IMG/VR virus record: IMGVR_UViG_3300033475_000073
Coordinates: 1-40,754 of that record
DNA length: 40,754 nt
DNA from: a virus
Direction: 5' to 3' (one strand)
A model generated the notes under the pieces. The model saw only the letters and a program-made list of their open reading frames with translations, ran no database searches and was not told the DNA's origin. Shown here in pieces: positions 1,759 to 15,304 of the stretch. Position 1 is the stretch's first letter; each line of letters starts with the position of its first letter. The position numbers and the translations under genes are program-made.

Positions 1759-3206
1759 AGCTCGCCGTCATCCTCTGCGTCAATATCCAGGCCATTGGCG
1801 AATGTCCAAGTCGTCCCGGCGGGTATGTCGATCTGAAGCCTATGGAACCGGCCAGACGATAGCAGCGGCACATCGCCGTTGCTCTGCATGGCTGCCGATG
1901 ATGTCAGCGCTTCAGAGTCCGCGAACCGCTCTCGGCTTTGGCATGTAATAGTCGCAGCCGACGTATCGCACAGTGGGCGCAGATTGGTGATTATCGAGCG
2001 CCGACCCTTTGAAGGCTCAACGTCCGCCGTCGTCATCGTGGCAGCTAGATTGCTTCCCGCAAGTGAGCATAGTTGATGGCTGGAATTGAAGATGCCCATA
2101 TAGGCCGCGCCGCCCGTCCATGCGCGACTATCGAAGCTGATCGGCACGCTTTCGATGGTCGAATAGACCAAGCCAATGCCTTCGAGCGTCCAGGCTTCTG
2201 ACAGCGCCGGATATATCAGCTCGTGCGCCAGCTTCGCGTACGACCACTGCTTGTTGTACCAATTGTAGGCCAGGATTGTGTCAGGCTTGGTGACATCCGT
2301 CGCATCGGTCGAAACGAAGGACCAGAACACCAACTTGTTCTGAGGGTCGAAGCCGGAAGTAACTTCTTCAAGCGTGTTCGGCTGCAAATGTGCAGCAAAC
2401 CATTGGTCAACCATCTGGTTGCCGATGGATACGCTCTGGTTGTCGCCGTCCTTCTGATAAAAGCCGTCATGGTCGAGAAAGAAGACGCTTGCCCCCACCT
2501 TGACCAGCGACCCCGGCGCCGCGACGCCTCGATTGGTTTCCAGTACGTCAAACTGGAAATATAGCGGCGGCCCCACATAGGTCATGCGGGTTATGATGTT
2601 GTCCTGAAAAACATAGCCGACGTCCCCGCCAACTATGCCTTGGATCCAGCCGCCATCCTGAAGCGTCTGGGAATCGCACTGCGCCGTGCCCTTGGTCCAA
2701 TTCGTCGAGTCATTGAACCCCGACCAATAGACTTCGGAAGGACTATTGGCAGTATTCGCCAGAACTACGAAATCACGGATCCGGGCAATGTGCCTGGCCT
2801 TGGGCGGGCTACCCGTCAGGTCCGCGAACAGGGTTGACGACCCCATGTCGTAATACTGAACTGGGTCAGTAATTTCCGTGGCGATTACGCGCTGTCCGAA
2901 CTGGACAAATTTCCAACGCTCCACGGTCCCGACGCTATAGCCGCCGCTCTTGGAAACATCCGAAAAAGTGCCGGCTGAAAGCTTGTAGAGCTTCGTACCA
3001 TCGCCAGCGAACGTGTTGATCGACCCAAATGCATCTATGGCAGAGAATGCACCGGCGCATTGCCCATTTAGCGCCGTCGAGATGGCCGACATATCCCTGA
3101 CTGGGATATATCCGGCACCACTTGCGAACACATTCTTCGCGTCAGTCTGGCCCTGGTTGGCGAGGCCGAACATATCCGGTCGCCAATCCGAAAGACCTAT
3201 TCTCAA
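1755..3206 (-). CDS. Putative tail tubular/nozzle-like structural protein
   Basis: 483-aa ORF directly downstream of the adaptor-like gene with a 4-nt overlap. Position and size fit a podovirus tail hub component. No named motif recognised. Confidence 0.5.
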   Translation of the reverse strand: MRIGLSDWRPDMFGLANQGQTDAKNVFASGAGYIPVRDMSAISTALNGQCAGAFSAIDAFGSINTFAGDGTKLYKLSAGTFSDVSKSGGYSVGTVERWKFVQFGQRVIATEITDPVQYYDMGSSTLFADLTGSPPKARHIARIRDFVVLANTANSPSEVYWSGFNDSTNWTKGTAQCDSQTLQDGGWIQGIVGGDVGYVFQDNIITRMTYVGPPLYFQFDVLETNRGVAAPGSLVKVGASVFFLDHDGFYQKDGDNQSVSIGNQMVDQWFAAHLQPNTLEEVTSGFDPQNKLVFWSFVSTDATDVTKPDTILAYNWYNKQWSYAKLAHELIYPALSEAWTLEGIGLVYSTIESVPISFDSRAWTGGAAYMGIFNSSHQLCSLAGSNLAATMTTADVEPSKGRRSIITNLRPLCDTSAATITCQSRERFADSEALTSSAAMQSNGDVPLLSSGRFHRLQIDIPAGTTWTFANGLDIDAEDDGEL

Positions 3207-3853
3207 GGGTTGCCCGTGTCGCTAAAGGCCTGCCACGGCGAACCGGAAAAGCGGTCGTCCTTGTCAGACAGGTTTAGGCCGTTGATGATGCCGGCGAACA
3301 TGGCGCGCGCCTCTGACGCTTTCTCCGCATTGCGAATATAGCTGTATGCCTCCGCGAGCGTTCCTTGCAGGTAGGCGCCGAAAGCATTCTGAAGCAGCCA
3401 GTTGGTGTCGCTGTCGCTGGAAAGCGCGGTCAGCTTCTTGTAGTAGAGGCTCTTGCCAGTATAGGTGCTGTCTGGGATCGGGCCGAACACGAAGTTCTCG
3501 CCCTCAATCGTGTAGCGCGTAGGCGTGTCAGAAATGGAACTGATGTAGGTGCGCCAGAACAGCGTCGGAACAATATACTCAAGTTCTTGGATCGGGTTGG
3601 TGTTCAGATAGAGGCGTCGTGGCGCGAGGTAGCCGGTAGGGAGCGCCACAGTCTGGGCGTTGATCGTGATGTCGGCAGACGTCTCCATTGCGCGGATACG
3701 CAGCGGATCAACCGGGATGGGTCCAGCCCTGTCGCCATACGCGATCTTCGTTTCGGCCAACTGCACGAAGTACGGGATTTGCGTGGTCAGGTTGGAGCGA
3801 TTGAGGAAGCTCGCTACCGTAGCCTTCAGGTCGCCAAAGGTCGAAAGGCTCAA
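3203..3853 (-). CDS. Putative head-to-tail adaptor / tail tubular protein A-like
   Basis: 216-aa ORF. The N-terminus (LKATVASFLNRSNLTTQIPYFVQLAETKI) resembles phage adaptor-type proteins. Lies between the capsid block and the tail hub. Confidence 0.45.
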   Translation of the reverse strand: MSLSTFGDLKATVASFLNRSNLTTQIPYFVQLAETKIAYGDRAGPIPVDPLRIRAMETSADITINAQTVALPTGYLAPRRLYLNTNPIQELEYIVPTLFWRTYISSISDTPTRYTIEGENFVFGPIPDSTYTGKSLYYKKLTALSSDSDTNWLLQNAFGAYLQGTLAEAYSYIRNAEKASEARAMFAGIINGLNLSDKDDRFSGSPWQAFSDTGNP

Positions 3854-4105
3854 TTACTTACCCGCGCCCAAGAGGCCGACAATATTGGTCGCCGTGGTGC
3901 TTGTAGCCTTGATGTTGCGAAGGCGAACCGGGATTAGTGCCCCAGCGGGCACAGCCTTGAACAGAACGGTGCGGCCGGACGGCGTGACCACGTTCACGTC
4001 ACCCGCGACGCCAACGTAGAACCCTACAAAGTTATTGGGGAGCTCTTTGGTATCGCTCGTAGTGATTGCAAATGCGTCGTAGGCAAGGGCTTTGGGGTCG
4101 AACAC
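3854..4105 (-). CDS. Spike base protein-like (GTA Rcc01079 family-like)
   Basis: 83-aa ORF with a GTG start. The pattern FYVGVAGDVNVVTPSGRTVLFKAVPAGALIPVRLRNIKATSTTATNIVGL matches my recollection of the RcGTA head-spike base family. Confidence 0.45.
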   Translation of the reverse strand: MFDPKALAYDAFAITTSDTKELPNNFVGFYVGVAGDVNVVTPSGRTVLFKAVPAGALIPVRLRNIKATSTTATNIVGLLGAGK

Positions 4106-4689
4106 TTATCAGGCATCCATGATGGACGTTGAGCCGTCTTGCCAGCATCAGGATCATCGATCCCGTAAGGCACCTTGCGGCAGGGGTGTAAAAGGTAGTT
4201 TTGGGGCGGCACATAGACGCTAATCCCGCGCCCGCGTGCGAAGCCGATCAGATATTCCATATTAGGGCGCTGATAGGCGTATTCACCGCCAGTCGCCAAG
4301 TCGCAGCCCCAAATCCCGATGCGATCCGCACCTTCCAGGATCGCGAGCGCCATCATGTAGGCGATGGAGCTTTCGAGATAGGCAGTCCCGTAGCAGGTCG
4401 CGCCGAAGGTCTTCTTCACCTCCTCCATCGGGTATTCCACCGAGTGAGGGATGTCCGCTTCCTGCTGAAGCATGTAAACCGGGACCGTAAGCCCTGCCAT
4501 CCATGCCTTGTGTATCTCCGCTGGCTCGCCACCGCCAAGGAAGTTGCGCCAGTTTTCGTGCATCTCGAAGTGACGGTCTGCACGCGGGAGCAAGTCCCAG
4601 GCCAGTGCCCACACTTCCCAGTCGTTAAAGTCGATAGGGGCATCGCTCCGGGAGTTGGAACACTTCCCCATGATCGCTATCTTGCGCAT
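4024..4689 (-). CDS. Rossmann-like enzyme of unplaced family, coupled partner of the glycosyltransferase
   Basis: 221 aa from the ATG at 4689 (TGATG overlap with the GT stop). Motifs KIAIMGKCSNS, HFEMHE, YLESSIAYMMALAILEG, GIWGCDL. The 3' end overlaps the next gene by 82 nt. Confidence 0.6.
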   Translation of the reverse strand: MRKIAIMGKCSNSRSDAPIDFNDWEVWALAWDLLPRADRHFEMHENWRNFLGGGEPAEIHKAWMAGLTVPVYMLQQEADIPHSVEYPMEEVKKTFGATCYGTAYLESSIAYMMALAILEGADRIGIWGCDLATGGEYAYQRPNMEYLIGFARGRGISVYVPPQNYLLHPCRKVPYGIDDPDAGKTAQRPSWMPDKCSTPKPLPTTHLQSLRAIPKSSPITL

Positions 4690-5417
4690 CAAAGCTCTTT
4701 GTAGAGAGCCTGTTTCACCACTTCCGCCTCTTTGGAGAGGAAGTTGGTGTACTCGAAGTCACCGATATGCGCGATCTGCTTGCTCAGGTCGTGGTCGATA
4801 TGAACCGGGATGCCGGCCTTGTGCAGCTTGCGGCAGAAATACACGTCCTCACCAACATGCTTCACGAACTCCGGCGCCTGCGGCTCGATGGCAAAGAACG
4901 GCAAGTCAAGCTTGTCGAACACCCGCATGTCGATCAGCACGCAACCGAAGCCAAGAACGCTAACCTCCTGAATTCCGGTCGCGTTCTCGCCGGACCAAAC
5001 CGGCCCAACATAGTCGGGGCTGTCCAGATAGGCGGTTGGCCTCGCCTCCATGTTCTTGCGGGGGTAGTTGACGCCCACACAGGCCAGATTGTGATTCAGT
5101 AGCCGGGCAATCGTGTCCGGCGGAAATTTCATGTCCGTGTCAACGAACAGGATATGCGTGGCCTCGAAATCGTAGGCCCTGGCCACCAACCGCGCCCTGC
5201 CCTCGGGCAACAGCGAGCTTTTGACGATGGTTACGTCCACCTCTTTGCTGCCGTCGTAAGGCAGGGAGGTGAAGTGAATGGCCGCGCGCGTAACGCTATG
5301 CAGAAAACCGGCCTTGCAATCCCCGTGGCTAGGAATGGCAATGAGAACCTTGAGCGGCCGAAGCGGCTCATTCTTGCCCGCCACAGGCTTTGAGCCCTGA
5401 CGCTTGCCCTTTTTCAT
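4689..5417 (-). CDS. Family-2-type (GT-A fold) glycosyltransferase
   Basis: 242 aa. Has VLIAIPSHG near the N-terminus and a DxD-type motif in HILFVDTDMKFPPDTI. Confidence 0.8.
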   Translation of the reverse strand: MKKGKRQGSKPVAGKNEPLRPLKVLIAIPSHGDCKAGFLHSVTRAAIHFTSLPYDGSKEVDVTIVKSSLLPEGRARLVARAYDFEATHILFVDTDMKFPPDTIARLLNHNLACVGVNYPRKNMEARPTAYLDSPDYVGPVWSGENATGIQEVSVLGFGCVLIDMRVFDKLDLPFFAIEPQAPEFVKHVGEDVYFCRKLHKAGIPVHIDHDLSKQIAHIGDFEYTNFLSKEAEVVKQALYKEL

Positions 5418-5435
5418 GTGTCCCTCAGCTAGTGA

Positions 5436-5738
5436 CTAAACTCGACCGCCCCATGTGCGGAATTTCTTGTTGTCAGAATCATTGGCCCATTGGCGCCAGC
5501 GTTTCCTGTCTGCAAACCATCCCTCGCGCATCGCTTGGTCCATGACCTGCATGGGTATGACGGCGACGTGACGAAAATCTTTGCCGGGCGGTTCGTCTGC
5601 AATGACCTTCGCTGCCTCTATGATCGGATCACAATCCTGCGCGGTCTTGATGAGCAAGTCGCCGGGACGCATCTCGTCAAAATAGGCGACTTCGTGCAGT
5701 CCGCCGAACGAGCTAAGGAGAAGCTTCTTGGTACTCAC
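5436..5738 (-). CDS. Hypothetical protein
   Basis: 100-aa track ORF with native-looking composition, in the late operon; 4-nt overlap with the upstream gene. Confidence 0.6.
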   Translation of the reverse strand: MSTKKLLLSSFGGLHEVAYFDEMRPGDLLIKTAQDCDPIIEAAKVIADEPPGKDFRHVAVIPMQVMDQAMREGWFADRKRWRQWANDSDNKKFRTWGGRV

Positions 5739-5932
5739 TGGCCGTCACCATAGACGTAGGCGTAGTATTTCTTGGCGGCCTCAAGTACGCCGTCTGCGCC
5801 GCCGATCTTCTTGTTCGGCTCGGCAACGGTGAACTCAGGCTGGGTCTGTAAGGCCCATTCGATGCAGCGGGCTTTGTATTCAGGGCTGACAAATTTGCTC
5901 ATCGATGCGGTGCCAGGGTCCGGAACAATCAT
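5735..5932 (-). CDS. Hypothetical protein
   Basis: 65-aa ORF; GGAGGG SD 3 nt upstream of the ATG at 5932. Confidence 0.55.
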   Translation of the reverse strand: MIVPDPGTASMSKFVSPEYKARCIEWALQTQPEFTVAEPNKKIGGADGVLEAAKKYYAYVYGDGQ

Positions 5933-5941
5933 CTTCCCTCC

Positions 5942-5973
5942 AAGAAAGAGGGGCCGAGATTGCTCCCGGCCCC
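5942..5973 (-). terminator. Intrinsic terminator/attenuator just downstream of the major capsid gene
   Basis: On the minus strand: GGGGCCG-ggagcaatct-CGGCCCC followed by TCTTTCTTG. It starts 11 nt after the capsid stop, and its tail abuts the SD of the next gene. Confidence 0.6.
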
Positions 5974-5983
5974 GATGCTACGA

Positions 5984-6964
5984 TTACGACGAAGTGTTCA
6001 GGTCAGCGATGACGCCGAACGCACCTTCGTTGCGCATTTCCAGCGTGTATTCCACACGTAGGTCCTTGCGCTGCGAGTCGCCAGTCTTCGCCAGGTCATA
6101 GGTGAAGACCGGGCGCAGATAGGCAACCGAAGCGAACTCCGGGTCGTACACGATGGCAGAACGCTCGCGGCTGAAGCGGTTGGGCACCACCTTCAGGTCG
6201 CCATAGTCCGACGCATACATGTCCGCCGCGCCCTGGATCACATTCTTGTTGTTCAGAACGGTGCGGGCGTTGGAGCGGCCAGTGAAGGTCGAGATGGTCT
6301 GCTTGTTGTGCGGGCCAACCATGATGATCGACGGATCACCGCCGGTCGCGTACACCTGGGCCAGCAGCTTCTTCAGAAGCGATTCCGTCAACGCACGCAG
6401 ATGGGTCGCATCCGTCGCGGCATTGGTCGTGCCGTTGACACTGGTCGAGGACTTGCCCTTCGTGCCGCCCGAAGTCGCGGTAGTTTCACGCTGGGTATTG
6501 GTACGCAGCCAGGCTTCGAGACCGCGCAGCTTACGCGCAGTGCCGGTGGCACCCAAGGCGCCGGCCTGGTTGGAACACAGAATGGTTTCCATATCGCGCT
6601 TGAGCTCTTTCGAGCGCTTCGCCATCTGGTAGCCCATTTCCGAATTGCGGCCGGCCTTGTCCACGCTTTCCTGCGTGCCGGTCACAACCACGTCCTTGCT
6701 GGAAATCTGGCAGATGTTGCTCAGACGGACAGTCGGGGTGGACGACGTACCGACAACCACGTCACCTTCCAACTGGGCGTTGGTGGACGAAGCGGAAGCC
6801 AGGGTATCGGTCTGCCATTCATGCTTGGTCGCCTTGGCCTTCGACTTGCCGATGGACGACATGAAGGGGGTCTGGGTAGGCGAGATGTTGTAGATGACGT
6901 TGGTGAGGTCTTCGCGATTACCGATAGCGCCATAAGAGCTAAAGGCATTGGTCTGGATAGTCAT
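5984..6964 (-). CDS. Major capsid protein (HK97 fold, DUF5309/SU10-type family)
   Basis: 326 aa. The N-terminal signature YGAIGNREDLTNVIYNISPTQTPFMSSIGKSKAKATKHEWQTDTLA is typical of this capsid family. Lies directly after the scaffold gene. Confidence 0.9.
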   Translation of the reverse strand: MTIQTNAFSSYGAIGNREDLTNVIYNISPTQTPFMSSIGKSKAKATKHEWQTDTLASASSTNAQLEGDVVVGTSSTPTVRLSNICQISSKDVVVTGTQESVDKAGRNSEMGYQMAKRSKELKRDMETILCSNQAGALGATGTARKLRGLEAWLRTNTQRETTATSGGTKGKSSTSVNGTTNAATDATHLRALTESLLKKLLAQVYATGGDPSIIMVGPHNKQTISTFTGRSNARTVLNNKNVIQGAADMYASDYGDLKVVPNRFSRERSAIVYDPEFASVAYLRPVFTYDLAKTGDSQRKDLRVEYTLEMRNEGAFGVIADLNTSS

Positions 6965-6986
6965 GTTGGGTTAGAGGCTCCTGTCC

Positions 6987-7901
6987 TCAGAACATTGATT
7001 GGAACACCCGAGCCGCATCGTCGATGCTGCCGGTCTTTTGGAGCCGCTCGAAATCACCCTTTAATTTCTCGTCCTTGCTGGAAGACTGCGTGACCGTTCC
7101 CGGTTGCTGAACCGGAGGGGCCTTCGCCGCTTTCGCCTGTGCGGTCTTGAGAGCCGCCTGTGACGCCTTGAACTGCATGGCGTCGTGCAACAATGCGAAG
7201 TCATTTGCCGATGCCATAGCGAGCTGCTGGGGCGTGTAACCACGCTCCTTGATCGCGAAGTCCTGAAGTTTCTTGGCGAGTGCCGGACCCTTTTCGGGGT
7301 CCTTCAGATCGGGCAAGAACTTTTCGAGCTTCGTGCGCTCACTGGCCTGCCATTCGGCATGACGCTGCTGCGCCTGCTGATTGGCCTGACCTTGGGCCGT
7401 CTGCTGTGCCTGCTGGGCCTGCTGCAAACGGGCATTGGCAATGACGTAACGGTTGTAGCGATCCGGGTCTTCTTGGGCGACCCTCTGCAAATCATCAAAA
7501 CCCTTGATGTCTGCAAACTCGCCCCTAATCGCCGCTTCCAACTGCGGGACATAGGTATTGAGTGCGTTTAGGAACTGATTTCGAGTGGCTTCGGCTTCCT
7601 GAATCTTGCGAGCCGCTTCCGAACGCATCTGCTCCACGTCCGGCGCAGCGGCGTGGGCAGGCTGGGAAGGCTCTTCCGGGACTTCGGGGGCCGTATTGTC
7701 CGGGGCAGGCTCCTGCCGAGCCTCACTCGCCGGGGTCTCAACCTCGGACGCCTGCGCGGGCGCCGATGGCTGGGATTGGGGTACATCGGTCTGGGCTGGC
7801 GCGTCATCAGGTTGCTGCCTGTTAAGCAGGTCCGTGATGGCGCTTGCCGCCTGATCCAGATCGAGGTCTGTGTTATCTGAACTGTTTAAGTCGTCGGCCA
7901 T
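6987..7901 (-). CDS. Scaffolding protein
   Basis: 304 aa, acidic N-terminus and long Q/A/E-rich helical stretches. Lies between portal and capsid. Confidence 0.7.
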   Translation of the reverse strand: MADDLNSSDNTDLDLDQAASAITDLLNRQQPDDAPAQTDVPQSQPSAPAQASEVETPASEARQEPAPDNTAPEVPEEPSQPAHAAAPDVEQMRSEAARKIQEAEATRNQFLNALNTYVPQLEAAIRGEFADIKGFDDLQRVAQEDPDRYNRYVIANARLQQAQQAQQTAQGQANQQAQQRHAEWQASERTKLEKFLPDLKDPEKGPALAKKLQDFAIKERGYTPQQLAMASANDFALLHDAMQFKASQAALKTAQAKAAKAPPVQQPGTVTQSSSKDEKLKGDFERLQKTGSIDDAARVFQSMF

Positions 7902-8158
7902 GTGAATATGCTCCGCTTCGCACCCTCAAGTTCTTTGAGGCGCGCTTCCTTGAGTTTTCCGGTTGTGGCCGTGCTCTGAAGATCAGCGACGAGCTTCTCG
8001 ATCAGGCAGACGTAGCGATGACAGTCTTCACGGGCTTCAACGGTTTTAGCGTTGCGCCATGCCGCGTGATATTGCTGGTCAAGCGCGTTCAAGGCGTCCC
8101 GGAGATACTGGTTCTCTAGGAGTGCCTGGGCTTGGAGCCCCCTCTGGATTTCGTCCAT
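7886..8158 (-). CDS. Hypothetical protein downstream of portal
   Basis: 90-aa ORF; its ATG shares one nt with the portal stop (TAATG). Confidence 0.6.
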   Translation of the reverse strand: MDEIQRGLQAQALLENQYLRDALNALDQQYHAAWRNAKTVEAREDCHRYVCLIEKLVADLQSTATTGKLKEARLKELEGAKRSIFTWPTT

Positions 8159-10269
8159 TAGCCCGGCTTGCCGCCCGGCCTGACCGCAGGATCGGCAACC
8201 TTCATGGCGTTCGCCACGGCTGCGTTCTGCGTGTCGATTTCGTGGTCCAGAATGATTTGCGTCTGGCGCATCTTCAGTTCTTGCTGCGTCTGATAGGCCT
8301 GTAGGTTGGCCTTCTGCGCTGCGACGAACATCTGCGTTCTCGCGTCAGCCTGGTTCTTCTGTGCCGTCAGCGCGACATTCGCCTTGGCCTTGGCCTGCTC
8401 GATCTGCATCTTGCCGGCGGTCTGGGCCTGCTGGTTCTGGATATGAGCCTGGGCCTTAGCGGTCTCGGCCTGCGCCTTGGCCTGATCGGCAGGGTTGGGC
8501 CCGGCACCGGGCGGCATGATTGGCTGTTGAGCCTGCGGACCCTTCGGAAAGCTGAAGAAACGATCCACACCCTTCAGGCCCATAGCATTGATGCCGATCT
8601 CCGCGCTGTTGCGCAGATTATCGGACGAGACGAACCCAAGCGGGATGGCCTGGGCCTGCATCTGGGCCAGCAATCCAGCATGGGCCAACTGCTGATCCCG
8701 GTCGCCCATGCCCAGACCGACGCTTGCGGTCAGGTCCATGTCGCTGTTCCACGTGCGCGGGTCCATCGGAACCCAATCGTCACGCAGACGCACCATGCGC
8801 GGCTTGTCCTGATACTCACAAATCAGCTTCAGAATGAGCCGGAACGCGTCCTTGACGCCCGTCTCAGCAAAGGTTCGGGCGATAAGCTCAATCTTGCCCA
8901 TCGCGGCCGACATCAGCATACGCTCGCCAATGGCTGTCTCGTGCAGCTGGTTGGCGCCCAAGCCCTGCGTGCGCTGGGATACGCCCGTGCGCTGCTCCAT
9001 AACGCTGTCGATGTAATTCAGGCCGTTTAGAGCCTGGTCACCGACATTGGGCACTGGAATGGGGTTAATGGTGCCAATGGCCTTGACGCGGATCTTGCGG
9101 CCCGGCGCGCTCGAAAGCACCTCGGACGGATCGATCACCTGGGATTCGACAACTTCCTCGCGCTGGTTGTTAGCCAGATAGAGATTGTCGAGGTACTGAC
9201 GCATGATCGTGGACTTGATGAGCTGAATATCTCGGATCAAGTCGGCAACCGCACGGCCCCAGAAGCGGTGCGGCATGAGAATGGGTGTTAACGAAGCAAA
9301 CGGGCGCGGCGTGTCCCAAGCCTCGTTGCTAAGGATTTCGTAGACAGCGCCGGCCGTGACCACCTTGCGCATTTCCGCAATGCCGTCACCATCCACGTCA
9401 GCGAGGATATAGCCCTCGGTGACCCAGATTTGCCGCATAGCGTCGTTGATGTTCGGCTGGCCGGCCGGGACAACATACTCAACCGTGTTGCGGGCGATTT
9501 CCTCGGCATCCGTCTGAATGCTGGTTTCGTCGCCAGACAGGCGCTCGACAATCTCGCGGGAATAACCTTGCTCGATCATCCATGAAATTGTGCGGCGGCG
9601 GCGGTGGCCCACAAACCGCGCATGAGCAATATCGCGAGCGTCCTTGGAAATCAGGAACTCTTCCGGCGGAACCGGAACGATCTTGACGCACCCGCTTTTG
9701 TCAGTCCGCGTGATGACCAGATCGTGATAGGTCTGACCGTCATCGCCGTTAATCTCCGTATGCTCGGAGACTTCGACGCTCGGATCATTGACAATCATTG
9801 CGAACGAGACATCGTCCAGGCCGGCGTAACGCTCGCGCTTGGTCTTGGGCGTATCGTCCCACCAGATCTTCAGGATGCCATTCTTCTGAAGCAGGGCGTC
9901 CTTGAACCAGCTGTAATAGTTCCGGTAGCCGTGATTGTCGCGGTTCCAGATATAGTTGACGTAGTCCGTCGCCTGCTTTGCCAGCGGAACGTCGCGCTCT
10001 GTCTCAGGCTGGAACTCTACCGTGTCGTCCTGCGAGCAGAAAATCCGCATGAGCGTCGGCAGAATCCACTCGACGGTATCGGAAACGTCCTGCGAAACGA
10101 CTTGCGAGCGGCCATCAATCTCATTGCCAAACGGGCGCGCCTGGTAATAGTCCATATTGGCGGCACGTTCGATGGATAGCTGGGAATTGGCCTGACCGTC
10201 CGCACCTTCAATCTCAGCACGTATGATAGCCTTGAGGTCGGAGTCGGTGACCCCTTTGCGTGCTGCCAA
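8158..10269 (-). CDS. Portal protein
   Basis: 703 aa. The N-terminal pattern ERAANMDYYQARPFGNEIDGRSQVVSQDVSDTVEWILPTLMRIF is typical of podovirus portals. Position between terL and scaffold. Confidence 0.9.
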   Translation of the reverse strand: MAARKGVTDSDLKAIIRAEIEGADGQANSQLSIERAANMDYYQARPFGNEIDGRSQVVSQDVSDTVEWILPTLMRIFCSQDDTVEFQPETERDVPLAKQATDYVNYIWNRDNHGYRNYYSWFKDALLQKNGILKIWWDDTPKTKRERYAGLDDVSFAMIVNDPSVEVSEHTEINGDDGQTYHDLVITRTDKSGCVKIVPVPPEEFLISKDARDIAHARFVGHRRRRTISWMIEQGYSREIVERLSGDETSIQTDAEEIARNTVEYVVPAGQPNINDAMRQIWVTEGYILADVDGDGIAEMRKVVTAGAVYEILSNEAWDTPRPFASLTPILMPHRFWGRAVADLIRDIQLIKSTIMRQYLDNLYLANNQREEVVESQVIDPSEVLSSAPGRKIRVKAIGTINPIPVPNVGDQALNGLNYIDSVMEQRTGVSQRTQGLGANQLHETAIGERMLMSAAMGKIELIARTFAETGVKDAFRLILKLICEYQDKPRMVRLRDDWVPMDPRTWNSDMDLTASVGLGMGDRDQQLAHAGLLAQMQAQAIPLGFVSSDNLRNSAEIGINAMGLKGVDRFFSFPKGPQAQQPIMPPGAGPNPADQAKAQAETAKAQAHIQNQQAQTAGKMQIEQAKAKANVALTAQKNQADARTQMFVAAQKANLQAYQTQQELKMRQTQIILDHEIDTQNAAVANAMKVADPAVRPGGKPG

Positions 10270-10455
10270 TTAAGCTGTCCGTTCCGGTGTGTGCCCGAAT
10301 GTGAGCGACTTCAAGAATACCGTGCCCGATCCCGCTGGCGCGAACTCAAGCAGGTAATGGCAAGTCCCCTCGGTGTGTTGCAGACGCAAATGGCCGTACT
10401 CATTCCGTATTTCCATGATCGGCTTGGAATAAACGGTTTCAGCTTCGTCAGTCAT
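10270..10455 (-). CDS. Hypothetical small protein
   Basis: ATG at 10455 overlaps the terL stop (ATGA). It ends one nt before the portal ATG. Confidence 0.5.
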   Translation of the reverse strand: MTDEAETVYSKPIMEIRNEYGHLRLQHTEGTCHYLLEFAPAGSGTVFLKSLTFGHTPERTA

Positions 10456-11759
10456 ACGACCCATTTAGTGGCAGGCTGAGACCAGCCAGAATTGTTGCGC
10501 GGCTCTTCGTACGCGACGCACATCAAGCCGAACGCATCTGCGGCATGGCTCGACCAGTCATGTTCCGGTCCCAAGCCAATCTCGCGCTCATCCTCGGACT
10601 TCTTCTCGTGATACCAGCCAAGCGCATCGCGGCCGGCTTCAGTCCTGCTTACGTTGAACCAGATGCGCGGAAAGAGCCGGCGAGCGGCCTCAATACGCAT
10701 CTTGGCAGCCCCCTTACCCTGATTGGGGATCACATCGACGTTGAACTGAGCGTCTTGAAGGGCGCTCTTGTACGAAACGTCGTGAACCTTATCGTTCGTG
10801 TCGCCGTCATGCGGCAGGACACACAGCGCCTTGGAATAGCCGTTGTCACGAAGCCACTGCACATGACTGGCAAGCGGCTGGCCCTTGGCCTCATAATAGT
10901 CAAGCACGCGAATCTCGCGCCCAATGAACTGGCTGATCCAAATCGAGCAGGCGTCAGCCTTGGCGCCCGTACCGCCGATGTCCCAATAGGCTCGCAGCGT
11001 CATCAGAGGGTCGGCTGCGACGTTGCCGATGCGGCCCTGTGTTTTTGCCAGCAGCAGCGCCGAGGCGTAGTAAGCCCCCTCTACCACGGTCGCGTAACCG
11101 CCTTCCCAGATGTGATCGACTTGCTCTGGCCGCTCTGCGATGTCTCGCTGGCGATCACGTTCAAGCTTGGCTGGGAACTTGGGGTTGTCCCGCCAGTTGC
11201 ATTCGACAACCTTGATGCGCGGATCAGCCGACCGGCGAAACCTGGCCTCTACCGGCGCCGCCTTACGTTTTGGGTTCCACGTCACCCATAGCTCGGCATT
11301 CCAATCCTCGCCCTCCTCTCGAAGGGTCGGGATTACAGTCGTCCAGGCCGTATCAGTTACGGGCTCGGCCTCATCCACCCACAGGATGAGAACGCGGCCC
11401 TTGGACTTGATCGAGGCGACGTTACGATCCAGGCCAACAAAGGTGAACCAGATGCGCCCGTCCCGGCTTTTGATGTACTTCTCGCCAACGTCGTAATAGT
11501 CGGCAAGGAACGGCTCGTCGGCTATTGCCCGCTTGCACTCCTCAAGCGAGGAATCCTCAAGCGAGTTCATGAACTGGCGACCGCAGACAAGTTGGCCGCT
11601 GATACCCTGCTTGCCAAACATGTAACCGCGAACCGCGATCATCTTGGCGAAGCTTCTGGTCTTGGCGGATCCTCGCCCGCCGTAAGCCCCCCGAACGTCG
11701 GCCTCTCCCATGAATACCGGGATCAGCTTTTTGGGGAGGTCAATCCTTGCTGTCGTCAC
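10452..11759 (-). CDS. terL: Terminase large subunit (PBSX/Terminase_3-like)
   Basis: 435 aa. Walker A GGRGSAKT, Walker B-like LILWVDEAE, and a C-terminal nuclease region. Confidence 0.92.
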   Translation of the reverse strand: MTTARIDLPKKLIPVFMGEADVRGAYGGRGSAKTRSFAKMIAVRGYMFGKQGISGQLVCGRQFMNSLEDSSLEECKRAIADEPFLADYYDVGEKYIKSRDGRIWFTFVGLDRNVASIKSKGRVLILWVDEAEPVTDTAWTTVIPTLREEGEDWNAELWVTWNPKRKAAPVEARFRRSADPRIKVVECNWRDNPKFPAKLERDRQRDIAERPEQVDHIWEGGYATVVEGAYYASALLLAKTQGRIGNVAADPLMTLRAYWDIGGTGAKADACSIWISQFIGREIRVLDYYEAKGQPLASHVQWLRDNGYSKALCVLPHDGDTNDKVHDVSYKSALQDAQFNVDVIPNQGKGAAKMRIEAARRLFPRIWFNVSRTEAGRDALGWYHEKKSEDEREIGLGPEHDWSSHAADAFGLMCVAYEEPRNNSGWSQPATKWVV

Positions 11760-12051
11760 CAGCAGTCAGTTCTGTCAGCACGACCTTGGTCACCACTTCA
11801 AGCGGACCCTCGCCGTCTGCACCCGCAATTGCTTGGACAGCCTTGCCATCTAGGCGGTCAGCGACTTCCTTGATTGCCGGCACATCGCCACCAGCGGCCT
11901 TATCGACCAAGGCTTCGGCAATGCGAGCGATCTTCGTCTTGTCCCCCTCAGACCGCATAATCGCCAAGGTCAAAGCCTCTCTGAAAAGCTTATGTTTTTT
12001 TGGCCCGGGCGTTCCGTTCGGGTTGCCAGACTTTCCCGGCTCGAAAGGCAT
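11740..12051 (-). CDS. Putative terminase small subunit (DUF5681-like)
   Basis: 103 aa. N-terminal FEPGKSGNPNGTPGPKK motif. Immediately upstream of terL, overlapping it by 20 nt. Confidence 0.55.
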   Translation of the reverse strand: MPFEPGKSGNPNGTPGPKKHKLFREALTLAIMRSEGDKTKIARIAEALVDKAAGGDVPAIKEVADRLDGKAVQAIAGADGEGPLEVVTKVVLTELTAGDDSKD

Positions 12052-12071
12052 TGCGTTTTTCCATTAACTCT

Positions 12072-12551
12072 TTAGGCGGCCTTGGAAAGGGCGCGGGGCA
12101 TGAACACGGTCTCAGGACTGCGATAAACTGCAAAGCCCTTGGGGCCGCGCGGACGGTTTTGAGGTAGCCGTTCGTTGCGAAGGCGGTAACCACATCCCCA
12201 GTCCGTTTCGATCCAGTAGTCTGCGTTGGCGGCAGCGAGCTTCTGGCGGATGCGACAGACATGGACACTGACGTTCTTCATGCCGATGTCGGAGCCGTCT
12301 GCCTCGTCAAAAGCCAAGGAGCTTAGAAGCGATTCGGGCTTAACTGTTTTGCCCACGCGGGATACCAAGTGCTGCCAGACGCGCAGTTCGCGACGGTTGA
12401 GGTGGACACGGGGCGGCGGAGATACGCCCTCCTTGCCCATGTATGCCTCGCACAGAATGGATATTTTGTCTGCGGCGCGCTCGACTGCCGGATCAACCGA
12501 GATTGCCCGGATCTGATCCAGAAGCCTCTCGACTTCCTGATGAGCTGACAT
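12072..12551 (-). CDS. Orphan OmpR/PhoB-type winged-helix DNA-binding protein (putative late-gene regulator)
   Basis: 159 aa. LNRRELRVWQHLVSRVGKTVKPESLL...NVSVHVCRIRQKL...ETDWGCGYRL matches the Trans_reg_C pattern. No receiver domain. First gene of the late operon. Confidence 0.75.
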   Translation of the reverse strand: MSAHQEVERLLDQIRAISVDPAVERAADKISILCEAYMGKEGVSPPPRVHLNRRELRVWQHLVSRVGKTVKPESLLSSLAFDEADGSDIGMKNVSVHVCRIRQKLAAANADYWIETDWGCGYRLRNERLPQNRPRGPKGFAVYRSPETVFMPRALSKAA

Positions 12552-12774
12552 AGTTCAATCCCCTCGGATTGGTTAGGCTGCGATACGGCCAGCGGATGCC
12601 GGCGGATTTGTCGGCCGCGGGCCAGGATCAATCGCAAAGCGTGGATCCGGCCTGAGACGGAAGTCCTCGACAACCTTCGGCGTAAAGCTGACCGGGCTAT
12701 AAGCTGAACAGCGATGAGTGGCGCGGGCGCACTGACCGCCGACCTCGTAACGAGTTAGTGTCCCGGAATATGAT

Positions 12775-12954
12775 TCAACGCTGACTAGGGTTGCCATCCA
12801 GGCCCTCGTCTTTGAAACTGCCCTCTGGCATGGATGCGCTGAAGACATGGCCCCGCTGGGCCTCGTGAATTAGCTGGTCTGTCTCGACTTCGGTCTGATC
12901 GAAATCGTCTAGGACACCCGCTGTAATGCAGGTGACTGGCTTGCGCGGCGGCAT
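12775..12954 (-). CDS. Hypothetical small protein
   Basis: 59 aa from the internal ATG (MPPRKPVTCITAGVLDDFDQ...). Third-position GC is about 66 percent by hand count. The SD is weak. Confidence 0.4.
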   Translation of the reverse strand: MPPRKPVTCITAGVLDDFDQTEVETDQLIHEAQRGHVFSASMPEGSFKDEGLDGNPSQR

Positions 12955-13040
12955 TGCCTCGGCTGATTTGGCAAGAAAAAGCCCCGCGCGGCGATTACCG
13001 GGCGAGGCCAACGGCGCAGTTTTGCACCATACGTAAATGT

Positions 13041-13238
13041 CTACGCAGTTTCCGGAGGACGTGCAAGAGTCGGGATGAGTGCGATCATCGCCAAATATTG
13101 CTTTCTCAGCCTTTCCGCCTGATGTTTCATGCGCGCTCGGTAAACGCTATTCGCGAGTGCGTGGCAGCGATGGCAGTTGCGCTGATTGGGGCGGGCGATT
13201 TCTCCGCAGGAGCATTGGTTTTGTTTCATTTGCTTCAC
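13041..13238 (-). CDS. Small Cys-rich (zinc-ribbon-like) protein
   Basis: 65 aa with CSCG...CHRCH; 4-nt overlap with the upstream gene. Confidence 0.55.
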   Translation of the reverse strand: MKQMKQNQCSCGEIARPNQRNCHRCHALANSVYRARMKHQAERLRKQYLAMIALIPTLARPPETA

Positions 13239-13468
13239 GGGAAACGTTCCAAGTTGGGCGCATCACTGAATTCCGCAAGAGCCCGAGACATTTCTCTGTC
13301 AGAAACCATCATTGCCGTGATGACCCAAAAGCCGGGCCAACCGAACATAAGCGGCACCCAAATCATAAAATGATCGGGATACATCGCAAATCCGACGCAG
13401 GGCCACAGGAGGAATGCTAAAAGCCCAAGAACAATGGCCCACATCTTAATGACATGCAGCGCCATCAA
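13235..13468 (-). CDS. Small integral membrane protein
   Basis: 77 aa with 2-3 hydrophobic spans (WAIVLGLLAFLLWPCVGFA, IWVPLMFGWPGFWVITAMMV). Confidence 0.6.
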   Translation of the reverse strand: MMALHVIKMWAIVLGLLAFLLWPCVGFAMYPDHFMIWVPLMFGWPGFWVITAMMVSDREMSRALAEFSDAPNLERFP

Positions 13469-14010
13469 GCGCCCCTCGCTTTTGCAATCGCCTCGATAAG
13501 GCTGTCCAGAGCCTCACGGAAGCGCGCCAGCGTCGAATCTCGATAGCCAGGCTGTATGGACACCACCGTTTCGGCGACCTTGTAGCCCTCGCCGCAGACT
13601 CTCCTACAGATCATCCAGTCGTTGGTGCCCATGGCCAGTTCGACGCGGCGCCAGAACTGCTTGGTGGCGCGCTCAACATCCACGAACGAACCTGAAATCC
13701 CGGCAGCGCGGACACGGTTGGGATCGAACCCGGCAGGCCACGAGGCGTTAATAATTCGCCAGCCCTCGTCAAATGCGAAAGCTGCGTCACGCCTTGCATT
13801 GGCCCTACGCACCTCTTCCTTGATACCGTGCTTGGCGGCGGCAGCCTTGCAGCAAAGGTGACCCAGCCGAAATTCCTTCTCGTAGACGGTCAGTCGTTCC
13901 CAGCCCTGCTTCGCGCCGGCACGGGTTGAGATATGGCGGGTTTGTGCATGATCGGCCGTGATAATCGCCGGGCCCTGGATTTCAACAGCTTCGGCGGCGG
14001 TGGATTTCAT
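13465..14010 (-). CDS. Hypothetical protein
   Basis: 181-aa track ORF in the leftward early operon with native-looking composition. Confidence 0.65.
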   Translation of the reverse strand: MKSTAAEAVEIQGPAIITADHAQTRHISTRAGAKQGWERLTVYEKEFRLGHLCCKAAAAKHGIKEEVRRANARRDAAFAFDEGWRIINASWPAGFDPNRVRAAGISGSFVDVERATKQFWRRVELAMGTNDWMICRRVCGEGYKVAETVVSIQPGYRDSTLARFREALDSLIEAIAKARGA

Positions 14011-14013
14011 GTC

Positions 14014-14355
14014 TTACCCTTTCTGTTGTGTGAGGGCGGCGGTGAGGGCTGCGCGGGCAAGCTTCTCGTAGACGTGGTAATAGTGCGTCGTGTCCTTGCC
14101 TTCGCTTTTCAGCATCCCGATAACAGCATCGCGCACCATAACCTCCGTCACCTCTGTCTGTGTGGGTTGGGAAGCGAGATGGTCGGCGCAGGCGTCTACA
14201 TCGATCACAAGCATAGGGTCGCTTCCGTTTTCTGGCGAGAACTTTGGGTTTTCGACCACGATATAGCGGTCATCTTTGCCAGAAACCTTGTAGCCTTCGG
14301 CAATCGCTCTGAGTGCCGCCAGTATCTCGCGCATCACCTTGTCGTCGTGGGTCAT
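14014..14355 (-). CDS. Hypothetical protein
   Basis: 113-aa track ORF; 4-nt overlap with the upstream gene. Confidence 0.6.
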   Translation of the reverse strand: MTHDDKVMREILAALRAIAEGYKVSGKDDRYIVVENPKFSPENGSDPMLVIDVDACADHLASQPTQTEVTEVMVRDAVIGMLKSEGKDTTHYYHVYEKLARAALTAALTQQKG

Positions 14356-14606
14356 TGGGCGTCACCGAATTTCGCCAGAGCCTCTGCAAGCCATTTCTTT
14401 GCCACCGCTTCAGCGCGTTGCTGGCCAGCGACCTTATCAATCGACCGGGTCTTTAAGCGATTTCCAAACACTGACACGTTGTATCGCGGCTCTCCATCTG
14501 CGAGTTTAGACAGGCCCTCATACCAGACTGACAGTTTCATTCCTGGCCCTAGCACGGTCACTTCAGTGTCGAGATATTGACCTTCCCGTTTCCATTCTAA
14601 GTCCAT
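14352..14606 (-). CDS. Hypothetical protein
   Basis: 84-aa track ORF, tightly packed. Confidence 0.6.
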   Translation of the reverse strand: MDLEWKREGQYLDTEVTVLGPGMKLSVWYEGLSKLADGEPRYNVSVFGNRLKTRSIDKVAGQQRAEAVAKKWLAEALAKFGDAQ

Positions 14607-14607
14607 C

Positions 14608-14976
14608 TCACTTTTCCTTGTTGGCGGCTAGGGAACGGATGGCCTTGGAAAGCGCAGTATACCGTTCTTCACATTTGATGCTTTCCCGGTGCGAGCCCAT
14701 CGTATAAAGCTGGGCACTCATCGCCCTCAGTTCGCATTCCATTTCGCGCAGCGGCACCAAATATCCTTCCACCACCTCCGCCCGCGCATCGTCCGTGGAT
14801 GGGGTGCGGCCCTGCCGGATCGCTTCCTTGTACGCGCGCGTGAGGTAATGCATCGTATCGCACGATAAAATCCACTCGCTGTCAGCCCGGTTGAAGTGCG
14901 CCTCAGAAATAACCTTGTTGAGCAGCGTCTCAACGGTTTCCGCTTCAGTCCGTTCTGTCGTCATGGGGGCGGTCAT
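14608..14976 (-). CDS. Hypothetical protein
   Basis: 122-aa track ORF. Confidence 0.6.
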   Translation of the reverse strand: MTAPMTTERTEAETVETLLNKVISEAHFNRADSEWILSCDTMHYLTRAYKEAIRQGRTPSTDDARAEVVEGYLVPLREMECELRAMSAQLYTMGSHRESIKCEERYTALSKAIRSLAANKEK

Positions 14977-15116
14977 GGGGTGGGGTCCACCAGTTTTTCC
15001 TTGGCCTCTTCCCGAATCTGCTCCAAGAACGCCACAGTGAACGGAAGAGGATAATCTCTGGCGCCAGCAACGGCGTTAATCCAACGCTCAAGAATGAGAA
15101 ATTGCTCTAGTGTCAC
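14973..15116 (-). CDS. Hypothetical small protein (GTG start)
   Basis: Only the last 47 codons of the 118-aa track ORF look native (VTLEQFLILERWINAV...). The GTG at 15116 overlaps the upstream stop (GTGA). Confidence 0.45.
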   Translation of the reverse strand: MTLEQFLILERWINAVAGARDYPLPFTVAFLEQIREEAKEKLVDPTP

Positions 15117-15304
15117 TTCGTTTCCCTTCCTTGTTCTGAGGTGTAGCGGGATAGGGCACGGCCGATTTTGCAGTCGGGCGAATGAGCTGCTTCCTTGCGA
15201 TAGCAGACCGGGCAGCGATCCTCTGGCATCGACCACTCGATGTACCTCAAAGCTTCCGCCAGCTCGTCTACTAGTGGGGTCACGGCGTGCCTGCCAGACC
15301 GCAA
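15113..15304 (-). CDS. Small Cys/His-containing protein
   Basis: 63 aa with native composition (CPVCYRKEAAHSPDC). Confidence 0.55.
   Translation of the reverse strand: MRSGRHAVTPLVDELAEALRYIEWSMPEDRCPVCYRKEAAHSPDCKIGRALSRYTSEQGRETK

Follow-up and report, generated by a model that had tools for sequence, protein, structure and literature searches.

To our knowledge, phage-encoded virion glycosylation has been shown essentially only in actinobacteriophages; virion glycosylation in giant and archaeal viruses is a separate case. In 2023, Freeman et al. reportedly demonstrated it in mycobacteriophages. Mycobacteriophage Corndog carries an O-methyltransferase and glycosyltransferases (gp35-38) within its structural operon (PMC4351075). 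The locus described here resembles the mycobacteriophage cassettes (Che8, Corndog) in that phage glycosyltransferases are placed with structural genes, accompanied in some relatives by methyltransferases. In the mycobacteriophages the acceptors, proposed in some cases and demonstrated in others, are proteins of the capsid and tail. The locus described here differs in several respects. Its hosts are apparently Gram-negative, its carriers are SU10-like podophages, its genes occupy a fixed slot between the major capsid protein (MCP) gene and an adaptor gene, and one partner has a sialyltransferase fold.

Other glycosyltransferases act on host structures. CstII of Campylobacter jejuni sialylates lipo-oligosaccharide (LOS), and serotype-converting phages change the O-antigen. 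In serotype-converting prophages, the Gtr clusters adjoin int/attP, encode membrane proteins among others and are expressed by the lysogen. Those prophages, like the phage studied here, are temperate and encode glycosyltransferases. In contrast to Gtr proteins, the two proteins described here are predicted to be soluble, and their genes lie in a late operon, in the head module, ~15 kb from int. The Maf enzymes are cytoplasmic and glycosylate flagellin, a self-assembling structural protein, with nonulosonic acid.

Gene structure and position of the pair

We analyzed two adjacent genes in the window, which is the whole 40,754-nucleotide stretch of viral DNA under study. Both are on the minus strand where the original prediction had placed them, and every motif string quoted there is present. 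The glycosyltransferase gene (GT; 4689-5417) encodes 242 aa from an ATG preceded, 4 nt 5' of it, by a GAGGGA ribosome-binding site. The second gene (4024-4689), whose product we call ST-like, encodes 221 aa from an ATG at 4689-4687; an alternative start, the TTG at 4692, gives the longest ORF (222 aa). The TGA stop of GT and the ATG of ST-like have one base in common (TGATG), as expected from the translational coupling proposed earlier. These are real genes and not chance ORFs, because their homologues reach E-values of 1e-118 to 1e-120, their AlphaFold2 models have mean pLDDT of 94.6 (GT; pTM 0.89) and 89.3 (ST-like), and their GC and GC3 are like those of neighboring genes. The same agreement in GC and GC3 led us to reject recent horizontal acquisition of the pair.

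The gene order on the minus strand is TerL, portal, scaffold, MCP, a 65-aa ORF, a 100-aa ORF, GT, ST-like, spike-base protein, SU10 adaptor and tail genes. The MCP (5984..6964) is of the SU10 type (PF17236, E 2.2e-96; phrog_1328), with 9ny2 and SU10 (7z45) as PDB sequence relatives. Directly 3' of its stop codon, a consensus search found a GC-rich hairpin of 10 pairs (8 G-C) with a T-rich tail after it (5950..5973). This hairpin is likely a partial terminator that would lower expression of the downstream enzymes relative to the MCP. The 65-aa ORF (5735..5932) had no family match in Pfam, PHROG or NCBIfam, and the 100-aa protein, g100 (5436..5738), matched phrog_3982 (E 2.3e-14). At the downstream edge of the slot is the SU10-type head-to-tail adaptor (3203..3853; PF24175, E 1.9e-27). 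Upstream of the adaptor lies an 83-aa spike-base protein of the RcGTA Rcc01079 family (3854..4105; NF048002, E 5.6e-22; phrog_12296). The spike-base gene is missing from the source annotation and overlaps the ST-like ORF over 82 nt at its 3' end. All of these features are on the minus strand.

The genes had been predicted to belong to a late head operon, unlike the int-linked modules for O-antigen conversion, and our analysis agrees on both points. They lie between the MCP and adaptor genes, downstream of the MCP hairpin, and a scan of the minus strand from 3000 to 7200 gave no sigma-70-like promoter match, although such a consensus scan is a weak test and the consensus may not fit the host. 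The integrase gene is at 30010-30957. Neither enzyme has a transmembrane segment or signal peptide (maximum 19-residue hydropathy 1.41 and 1.17). The genome also encodes a repressor/Cro-like HTH pair, ERF and SSB, which together with the integrase are temperate-phage genes.

Folds and conserved residues of the two proteins

The GT model is a single Rossmann-like alpha/beta/alpha domain of the GT-A fold. Foldseek gave 234 PDB matches at E<=1e-3, and the top matches listed were all GT-A proteins. The best were COLGALT1, LH3, STIV A197 and Mimivirus R699 (E 1e-10 to 1e-8). Lower in the ranking were the capsule synthases KfiA and heparosan synthase, TarP (41st) and the GT2 enzyme SpsA (47th-49th). 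A GT profile run against PDB sequences matched Mnn9 (3zf8; E 3.5e-7, over only 110 residues), STIV A197 (E 2.9e-4) and COLGALT1. STIV A197, COLGALT1 (GT25), LH3, R699 and Mnn9/Anp1 (GT62) share the GT-A fold and a DxD motif with the window GT, and several of them are viral or act on proteins; the window GT is only 15-17% identical to them. It had no Pfam match at E<=0.1. Its only database family match was phrog_1574, a family without known function. PF03452 (Anp1, GT62) is precomputed on about a quarter of the listed GT homologues, with the window GT itself below threshold.

These results do not bear out the earlier description of GT as a family-2-type enzyme. We rejected membership in CAZy GT2 on the missing Pfam match, the PF03452 assignment of homologues and the rank of SpsA in the fold list. 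Judged by fold and profile matches, the protein is probably a GT-A glycosyltransferase that resembles GT62, GT25 and STIV A197, not GT2. Its motif residues, R74, D93-T-D95 (a DxD after beta4), E190-D191, D208 and H217, are 96-100% conserved across 127 diverse homologues. D93-T-D95 is invariant in 69 GT sequences and 99% conserved in the 127 more divergent ones. E190-D191 and H217 (98-99% in the 127) are candidates for an acidic catalytic-base motif and a C-terminal His metal ligand.

ST-like had been called a Rossmann-like protein of no named family. This stands as far as family models go: none in Pfam, PHROG or NCBIfam matches it, and 0/63 family members match any Pfam model, PF06002 and PF01973 included. 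In contrast, its fold can be placed. CstII chains made up the whole of the top 12 Foldseek PDB matches, among them all 9 with E<=1e-3. The likeness is moderate (E 2.5e-5 to 2e-3, probability 1.0, TM 0.42-0.47), and C. jejuni CstII/CstI, CMP-Neu5Ac sialyltransferases of GT42, are the best and essentially the only solved-structure match. Fold searches also returned SteA and weak QueC matches, and matches in BFVD included viral DUF115/MptE-like models (E 4e-4 to 1e-3). Residues from about 180 to 221, the stretch that overlaps the next gene, are disordered. ST-like is enzyme-like rather than a structural fold, and we group it with the sialyltransferase-fold (CstII/DUF115-like) proteins as a distant member. 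Thus both products appear to be enzymes, as proposed, rather than structural proteins.

Searches of PDB sequences with the single ST-like sequence or a narrow profile found nothing. With a wide 141-sequence profile, 9 of 11 weak matches were GT42 sialyltransferases, all at one segment (E about 0.45-2 for CstII, CstI and 9c08), and hhalign of the wide alignment against CstII gave a probability of 58% over 32 columns. In this segment, S108-S109...G129-x-D131 of ST-like aligns with T131-S132...G152-x-D154 of CstII, part of the CMP-binding site; we verified the CstII segment against the actual PDB sequences. An earlier hhalign run, in which a narrow alignment was compared with a CstII sequence, yielded a probability of 2% and was dropped as evidence. 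There is thus weak sequence support, independent of fold, for a GT42 likeness on the nucleotide-binding segment.

Across 147 divergent ST-like representatives, G9, H45, G129, E137 and Q141 are 93-100% conserved (G129 100%), and D131, Y138 and E146 are 86-89% conserved (D131 86%). ST-like and CstII have in common a beta1 glycine-rich loop and the S/T-S...(A/I)...G-x-D nucleotide-binding segment. Unlike CstII, ST-like has no PF06002 match, is ~70 residues shorter, is encoded in a phage head module rather than a LOS locus, and has a 6-residue loop in place of the lid (CstII ~155-188): D131 and the helix starting at Y138 are only 6 residues apart. The lid of CstII carries the phosphate-binding Tyr156/Tyr162 and the catalytic His188, residue roles reportedly assigned in a 2004 structure paper. 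Downstream of the ST-like motif we found no conserved His, and no equivalent of CstII His188 or Arg129 was identifiable. Y138 may match Tyr162, and H45 and E137 are candidate base residues.

Maf/DUF115 proteins (PF01973, MptE-like) belong to a fold superfamily in common with ST-like, seen through BFVD and SteA. They differ from it in that 0/63 ST-like members match PF01973 and no Maf structure is among the top PDB matches. In function, the Maf enzymes are the closest analogy.

The ST-like family is large, with about 4,700 clusters (4,741) at 50% identity. Inteins typically occupy functional sites, and two homologues contain one exactly between the GxD and EYxxQRP motifs. Many distant members have a long C-terminal coiled-coil-like tail. 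Ten long homologues scanned for fusion partners had no informative Pfam domain and one weak intein match.

The same slot in other phages

Conservation of the position in related phages was strongly positive. At 70/80 IMG/VR loci the ST-like gene is located between the MCP and adaptor genes of SU10-like phages, and the order MCP-g100-GT-adaptor is found at 65/79 GT-sampled loci and 39/73 MCP-sampled loci. Among other phage types, ST-like adjoins a phrog_10/617-type MCP or a phrog_442/40 head-tail adaptor at 6 of 9 loci; against this, two loci (L003 and L031) have it upstream of the terminase genes instead. Relatives of GT are encoded on at least 521 IMG/VR contigs, nearly all with the order MCP-g100-GT-adaptor, and the slot holds at least one of the two enzymes in hundreds of uncultured phages. 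The small gene g100 was found in 62/62 loci with both MCP and adaptor and always adjoins GT and/or ST-like; it is a core gene of the SU10-like head module. It has no credible PDB sequence relative, its sole match being a designed repeat protein.

The two genes had been described as a two-enzyme cassette. However, each enzyme also occurs alone, GT without ST-like at 39/73 MCP-sampled loci and ST-like without GT at most ST-sampled loci, so the pair is not obligate. Both enzymes mostly follow the MCP in vertical inheritance; across 115 MCPs there are about 5-6 gains or losses. The carriers apparently infect cyanobacteria as well as Alphaproteobacteria of soil and marine origin. This host span, with vertical inheritance, is easier to reconcile with a substrate intrinsic to the phage than with one specific to a host.

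The slot is occupied elsewhere by prolyl-hydroxylase-type 2OG-Fe(II) oxygenases (PF13640, PF13759) and generic class I SAM methyltransferases. The window has no lysyl hydroxylase, whereas its relatives have these oxygenases. In phiM5, the same slot holds a virion-associated SGNH hydrolase, so position in the head module is only circumstantial for function. One locus (L083), in which no MCP was identified, has a PseB/CapD-like dehydratase ~3 kb upstream of ST-like; sugar genes are otherwise missing from that locus, and the dehydratase is only a lead for the donor. The structural regions of an archaeal virus and of Microcystis phage Mel-JY34 also contain GT relatives, the one in Mel-JY34 adjoining the MCP gene. 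A pelagiphage relative has a second GT as its neighbor, and a putative structural protein is encoded about 3 kb downstream of it. Our literature search found no paper on the ST-like family, DUF115 in phage heads, nonulosonic acids on virions, or Mel-JY34.

Proposed role and competing explanations

What we observed, namely the structure of the genes, the folds and conserved motifs of their products, the place in the late operon and a slot conserved across hundreds of phages, is most consistent with the notion that GT and ST-like glycosylate virion proteins, the best reading and one that we give about an even chance of being right. GT and ST-like would be soluble, catalytically competent glycosyltransferase-like enzymes, made late alongside head proteins. 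Their cytoplasmic target would be a protein of the phage head, and the outcome a glycosylated virion. GT would hold a divalent metal through D93xD95 and H217 and take its nucleotide-diphosphate sugar from the pool of the host. For ST-like, the analogy to CstII and Maf/DUF115 points to a CMP-activated acidic sugar as the putative donor, e.g., Kdo or a nonulosonic acid. The two would be separate modules in one slot rather than steps of an obligate pathway. Any benefit, like the catalytic activity, donor and acceptor themselves, is inferred; it could lie in shielding, stability or changed surface properties.

We favor virion glycosylation because the best fold matches of GT (COLGALT1, LH3, R699, A197) are protein-glycosylating or viral enzymes, because modification enzymes (oxygenases, methyltransferases) fill the slot elsewhere, and because the genes are coupled, follow the post-MCP hairpin, have no promoter match and lie far from the integrase. 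Conservation of the slot in hundreds of phages suggests that capsids may be sugar-coated by the phages' own enzymes. Counting against virion glycosylation, the genome contains no sugar-nucleotide synthesis genes. The reading is also weakened because ST-like lacks the CstII lid and His188, with TM ~0.45 and sequence E about 0.5.

The MCP is the most likely acceptor candidate, with the spike as an alternative. Ser and Thr make up 21.8% of the MCP, and a variable loop rich in Ser, Thr and Gly lies at residues ~157-190. Among 115 MCPs, no column tracks the presence of GT or ST-like, including Ser/Thr/Lys of the variable loop; this test is low in power because there are only about 5-6 independent gains or losses. 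We also considered the MCP sequence TKGK as an acceptor signature and rejected it: most two-gene loci have TKGK, and L014, L061 and all GT-only clades are without it.

Alternatively, the enzymes might alter host envelope glycans (LPS core, O-antigen or capsule), either in the lysogen or late in infection against re-adsorption or superinfection. The phage is temperate, the characterized relatives of ST-like work on LOS, and KfiA, heparosan synthase and TarP are among the lower fold matches of GT. However, neither protein has a membrane segment or signal peptide, and int/attP is not adjacent. The operon position after the MCP hairpin, the coupling and the lack of a sigma-70-like match (with the caveat on consensus given above) together make expression from a prophage unlikely. 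Moreover, the slot is conserved over diverse hosts and unrelated head families, which is unexpected for enzymes tuned to one host glycan. We consider an envelope function distinctly unlikely. Glycosylation of phage DNA, a base hypermodification against restriction like that by the T4 glucosyltransferases and 5hmC/5hoC glycosyltransferases, seems very improbable. DNA-glycosylating phage GT-A enzymes show an R...DxD...ED(Y/F) pattern (bioRxiv 10.1101/2023.12.21.572611). The window GT has R74, D93xD95 and E190-D191-V-Y-F, and relatives have oxygenases and methyltransferases in the slot. Against this, the oxygenases are of the prolyl-hydroxylase type, the methyltransferases are of the generic class I SAM kind, the genes belong to the head rather than the replication module, and TarP ranks only 41st among the fold matches. 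Pfam recorded no DNA-hypermodification genes among the called genes of the 40.6-kb genome (no C5-methyltransferase, TET/5mYOX, dNMP hydroxymethylase or DNA polymerase), but for the small genes there is mostly no Pfam match of any kind.

A different doubt concerns ST-like alone. GT could be a real glycosyltransferase and ST-like another nucleotide-binding enzyme (an MptE-like pyrophosphokinase or ATP-pyrophosphatase-like protein) or a non-catalytic head-assembly factor. The fold superfamily includes MptE, SteA and the weak QueC matches, no Pfam model fits, the coiled-coil-like tails of distant members recall scaffolding or assembly proteins, and the missing lid and catalytic His and the TM of ~0.45 discussed above leave room for such a function. 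We think it fairly unlikely, given that sialyltransferases account for the top 12 PDB structure matches and 9/11 PDB sequence matches, that the matched segment is the CMP-binding S/T-S...GxD region, that polar residues are strongly conserved, and that family members are co-located with glycosyltransferases, methyltransferases and a nucleotide-sugar dehydratase. A more specific proposal goes the other way: ST-like may be the founding member of a very large phage-specific sialyltransferase-fold family that puts host CMP-activated acidic sugars (Kdo, pseudaminic/legionaminic-type) on the MCP. We offer this tentatively, as a real possibility that is on the whole doubtful. If it is true, a 'sialylation-like' capsid coat would be common and overlooked in environmental tailed phages, across at least two unrelated head-gene families, and would often come together with GT-A glycosylation, hydroxylation or methylation by enzymes of the MCP-to-adaptor slot.

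If virion glycosylation is correct, hundreds to thousands of uncultured phages would obtain glycosyl-, methyl- and hydroxyl-transferring enzymes from a fixed 'modification slot' between MCP and adaptor. These enzymes would write the surface chemistry of the capsid and make it a trait that can evolve, with a bearing on phage stability, on how phages adhere to particles and mucus, on immune recognition of phages used in therapy and on unexplained cryo-EM densities. The CstII likeness is a first fold-based functional lead for a large family without a Pfam, PHROG or NCBIfam model. Testable residues are D93, D95, E190, D191 and H217 of GT, and H45, D131, E137, Q141 and E146 of ST-like. Only two cultured or host-associated records contain either gene, and these offer entry points: Mel-JY34 for GT and Microcystis phage Mvi-Yong1342-1 for ST-like. 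Mvi-Yong1342-1 was recorded from a Microcystis viridis strain.

Gene order in the late operon

The first 127 bases of the window are repeated exactly, in direct orientation, at 40628-40754. From this terminal repeat, an assembly overlap, we conclude that the window is a complete circular phage genome of 40,627 bp. The assembly derives from JGI metagenome 3300045391. The phage is temperate, as judged from a tyrosine integrase (30010-30957, + strand), a divergent HTH repressor/Cro-like pair, ERF and SSB. No closely similar cultured phage was found. A tandem run of imperfectly repeated 9-nt units (GCCGCCAAC, plus GAC and TAC variants) occupies 21988-22209, where 16 overlapping copies of 69 nt were reported. 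It lies inside an ORF (21547-22272, + strand) for a 241-aa early-region protein, where it encodes low-complexity (Ala-Ala-Asn/Asp/Tyr)n.

The head genes are of SU10 type. The late operon, on the - strand, begins with TerL (10452-11759), followed by the portal (8158-10269; PF23899), the scaffold (6987-7901), the major capsid protein (MCP; 5984-6964; PF17236), a 65-aa ORF and g100, a 100-aa ORF (5436-5738; phrog_3982). Then come the 242-aa glycosyltransferase (GT; 4689-5417), the 221-aa sialyltransferase-like (ST-like) protein (4024-4689), an 83-aa spike-base protein of the RcGTA Rcc01079 family (3854-4105; NF048002, E 5.6e-22), the adaptor (3203-3853; PF24175) and the tail genes.

We found that the enzyme genes lie where the original prediction had placed them, in the late operon between the MCP and adaptor genes. 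Gene order and sequence confirmed this and the TGATG junction, in which one base belongs both to the stop of GT and to the start of ST-like; all of the predicted motif strings were found in the two ORFs. GT has the ribosome-binding site GAGGGA. The spike-base gene, not called in the source annotation, is read in a different frame from the ST-like ORF and overlaps its final 82 nt; the part of ST-like encoded there, its tail, is neither ordered nor conserved. Both enzyme genes match their neighbours in GC and GC3.

Directly 3' of the MCP stop codon is a strong, GC-rich hairpin (5950-5973, - strand; 10 bp) with a T-rich tail, probably an attenuating terminator controlling how much downstream product is made relative to MCP. 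A scan of the - strand from 3000 to 7200 gave no match to a sigma-70-like promoter, using a consensus that may not fit the host. This pattern fits high expression of MCP and lower, catalytic-level expression of the genes after it.

A conserved slot in related phages

Comparative genomics provided the main new evidence. A search of IMG/VR with ST-like retrieved 264 relatives; of the 80 loci read, 70 had the order MCP, ST-like, adaptor in an SU10-type module, with g100 adjoining. Nine loci came from phages of other types, and in six of them (L024, L058, L077, L045, L082 and L071) ST-like directly follows an MCP of the phrog_10/617 type or directly precedes a phrog_442/40 head-tail adaptor. ST-like is upstream of the terminase genes in locus L031 and in Microcystis phage Mvi-Yong1342-1. 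With MCP as the query, 586 relatives were retrieved and 80 of them read. The order MCP-g100-GT-adaptor was present in 39 of the 73 loci in which MCP and adaptor both occur (two cultured relatives from the 'phages' collection are counted here), and ST-like in none. Sampling by GT gave at least 521 relatives; 65 of the 79 loci read had this same GT order, and the remainder were mostly truncated forms of it.

These counts bear out the conservation of position that the original prediction proposed to check, for the slot, the interval between the MCP and adaptor genes, and not for the pair. On a neighbour-joining tree of 115 MCPs, 40 had GT only, 32 ST-like only, 10 both and 33 neither. Parsimony gave approximately 6 gains or losses for GT and 5 for ST-like, indicating that each enzyme is long-lived, mostly vertically inherited and independent of the other. 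All 62 SU10-like loci examined contain g100, which always abuts GT and/or ST-like. We found no annotated function and no fold relative by sequence (alignment A5) for g100; its counterpart in phiM5 is annotated 'conserved in LUZ24-like phages'. Cultured SU10-like relatives, phiM5 and ppBeUSDA76-2 among them, have neither enzyme, and the phiM5 slot holds a virion-associated SGNH hydrolase.

GT relatives also adjoin the MCP gene in cultured Microcystis phage Mel-JY34, and lie within the structural region of an archaeal virus. Pelagibacter phage HTVC027P has a relative beside a GT-B gene, with a putative structural protein encoded ~3 kb downstream of that relative. Among GTDB species representatives, the ST-like family was found only in prophage-like contexts, in MAGs of Rhodospirillaceae and other Alphaproteobacteria.

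Other genes occupy the slot as well. In marine relatives of SU10 type, 2OG-Fe(II) oxygenases of the prolyl-hydroxylase type (PF13640, PF13759) lie directly after the MCP gene (L067, 3726-4448; L081, 1277-2056) or directly after ST-like (L032, 853-1533). This placement may be relevant to an old question, the role of the 2OG-Fe(II) oxygenases that abound in marine phages. SAM methyltransferases are present in L013, L055 and L077. Fibre-like proteins, with either a Gly-rich domain or an intramolecular chaperone of the Peptidase_S74 type, lie between ST-like and the adaptor (L011, 9229-11648; L017, 10941-14640), and a ConA-like lectin-domain protein between MCP and ST-like (L024, 9182-9994). In L005, a prophage closely related to the window phage (ENA AH_forest contig, 244 kb), 11.8 kb with ~18 genes separate MCP from adaptor (3445-15261). 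GT and ST-like are among these genes, as are a DUF6973 protein and several large ORFs without a family match. This stretch indicates that the slot is an insertion hotspot. The sole hint of a donor pathway was a PseB/CapD-like UDP-sugar 4,6-dehydratase (PF02719, E 4e-98) at 3543-4499 of L083, ~3 kb upstream of ST-like (7356-8120); no MCP was identified in L083, and no further sugar genes in the rest of that locus.

Predicted folds of the two enzymes

GT had no match in Pfam or NCBIfam, and its sole PHROG match was phrog_1574, a family without known function. Approximately one quarter of the GT homologues listed carry a precomputed PF03452 (Anp1, GT62) assignment, and a profile of 69 sequences matched Mnn9 (E 3.5e-7), STIV A197 (2.9e-4) and COLGALT1. 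The AlphaFold2 model is confident (pLDDT 94.6), and its best Foldseek matches were COLGALT1, LH3, STIV A197 and Mimivirus R699 (E 1e-10 to 1e-8), followed by many other GT-A enzymes. R74, D93xD95, E190-D191, D208 and H217 are 96-100% conserved among 127 divergent homologues. Together, fold matches and motifs point to a GT-A, DxD-type glycosyltransferase. The GT-A part of the original prediction thus stands, and its 'family-2-type' label does not agree with these homologues.

ST-like had not been assigned to a named family. Neither it, nor any of 63 homologues, nor their profile had a sequence match in Pfam, PHROG, NCBIfam or PDB, and by sequence it is a member of neither GT42 nor DUF115; its fold can now be likened to known enzymes. 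The model (pLDDT 89.3) is a three-layer alpha/beta fold with residues ~180-221 disordered. In a PDB structural search, each of the 12 best matches was a chain of CstII, a GT42 sialyltransferase from Campylobacter (TM ~0.45, probability 1.0, best E 2.5e-5), with QueC and SteA ranked much lower. In a viral structure library, the annotated matches were DUF115 and MptE-like proteins. A wider profile (141 sequences) had 11 weak matches to PDB sequences, 9 of them to GT42 sialyltransferases (CstII, CstI, 9c08). All nine cover one segment, S-x-x-Y-M-x-A-x-A-I...G-x-D (hhalign probability 58%), which corresponds to the CMP-binding T131-S132...G152-x-D154 of CstII. The lid and His188 of CstII have no counterpart in ST-like. 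Conserved polar residues are H45, D131, E137, Y138, Q141 and E146. We treat ST-like as a distant, lid-less protein of predicted sialyltransferase fold, one that at least resembles GT42 or DUF115 enzymes and perhaps works as they do.

The family is large (4,741 clusters at 50% identity, E<=1e-3). Two homologues, P0341 (587 aa) and P0323 (548 aa), each contain a ~300-residue class-1 intein (first residue Cys, terminal His-Asn, next residue Ser) exactly between the G-x-D and E-Y-x-x-Q-R-P motifs, a location that argues for the functional importance of this site. To our knowledge, the family has not been described before as an intein host.

Possible substrates

Mycobacteriophage virions are reportedly glycosylated, according to work by Freeman in 2023 that is cited in PMC12801897. 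Virion glycosylation by phage enzymes is already known, the Corndog cassette being an example (PMC4351075). New in the present case are the setting (phages of apparent Gram-negative hosts, SU10-like and others), the fixed position of the modification slot, the scale (uncultured phages in the hundreds to thousands) and a family of predicted sialyltransferase fold; we found no literature on any of these.

Both enzymes are made late, have conserved catalytic-looking sites and are soluble as judged by hydropathy. The hosts of phages with this slot appear to include soil Alphaproteobacteria as well as marine bacteria and cyanobacteria. Late, soluble enzymes, in a slot fixed across hosts and unrelated head families that has recruited other protein- and sugar-modifying enzymes, make a phage-intrinsic substrate more likely than a host-specific one. 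Modification of the host envelope is weakened: the proteins have no membrane parts, the genes are distant from the integrase and have no match to a sigma-70-like promoter of their own (with the same caution about the consensus), and the slot is conserved across hosts. Glycosylation of DNA would suit the generic R...DxD...ED pattern that GT shares with DNA GT-A enzymes, but is weakened, as base-hydroxymethylation machinery is not recorded in the window genome.

If the substrate is intrinsic to the phage, a head protein is the obvious candidate acceptor. Ser and Thr make up 21.8% of the window MCP, which also has a variable loop rich in Ser, Thr and Gly; a search for MCP residues co-varying with enzyme presence found none. 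The fibre-like and lectin-domain proteins of the slot could be fibres or decoration proteins of the head, which would make them alternative acceptors. It is suggestive, and not more, that the best structural relatives of GT glycosylate proteins (collagen hydroxylysine) and that sister loci have prolyl-hydroxylase-type oxygenases. Overall, we judge the case for glycosylation of virion proteins by these enzymes to be evenly balanced.

It is a serious possibility that ST-like is not a glycosyltransferase and has another role, given the missing lid and catalytic His. Many distant members (P0252, P0263, P0332, P0369 and others) also have a coiled-coil-like C-terminal tail of 100-150 residues, and the wide profile matches the SAS-6 and prefoldin coiled coils in PDB. 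Such a tail could tether the enzyme to the scaffold or procapsid.
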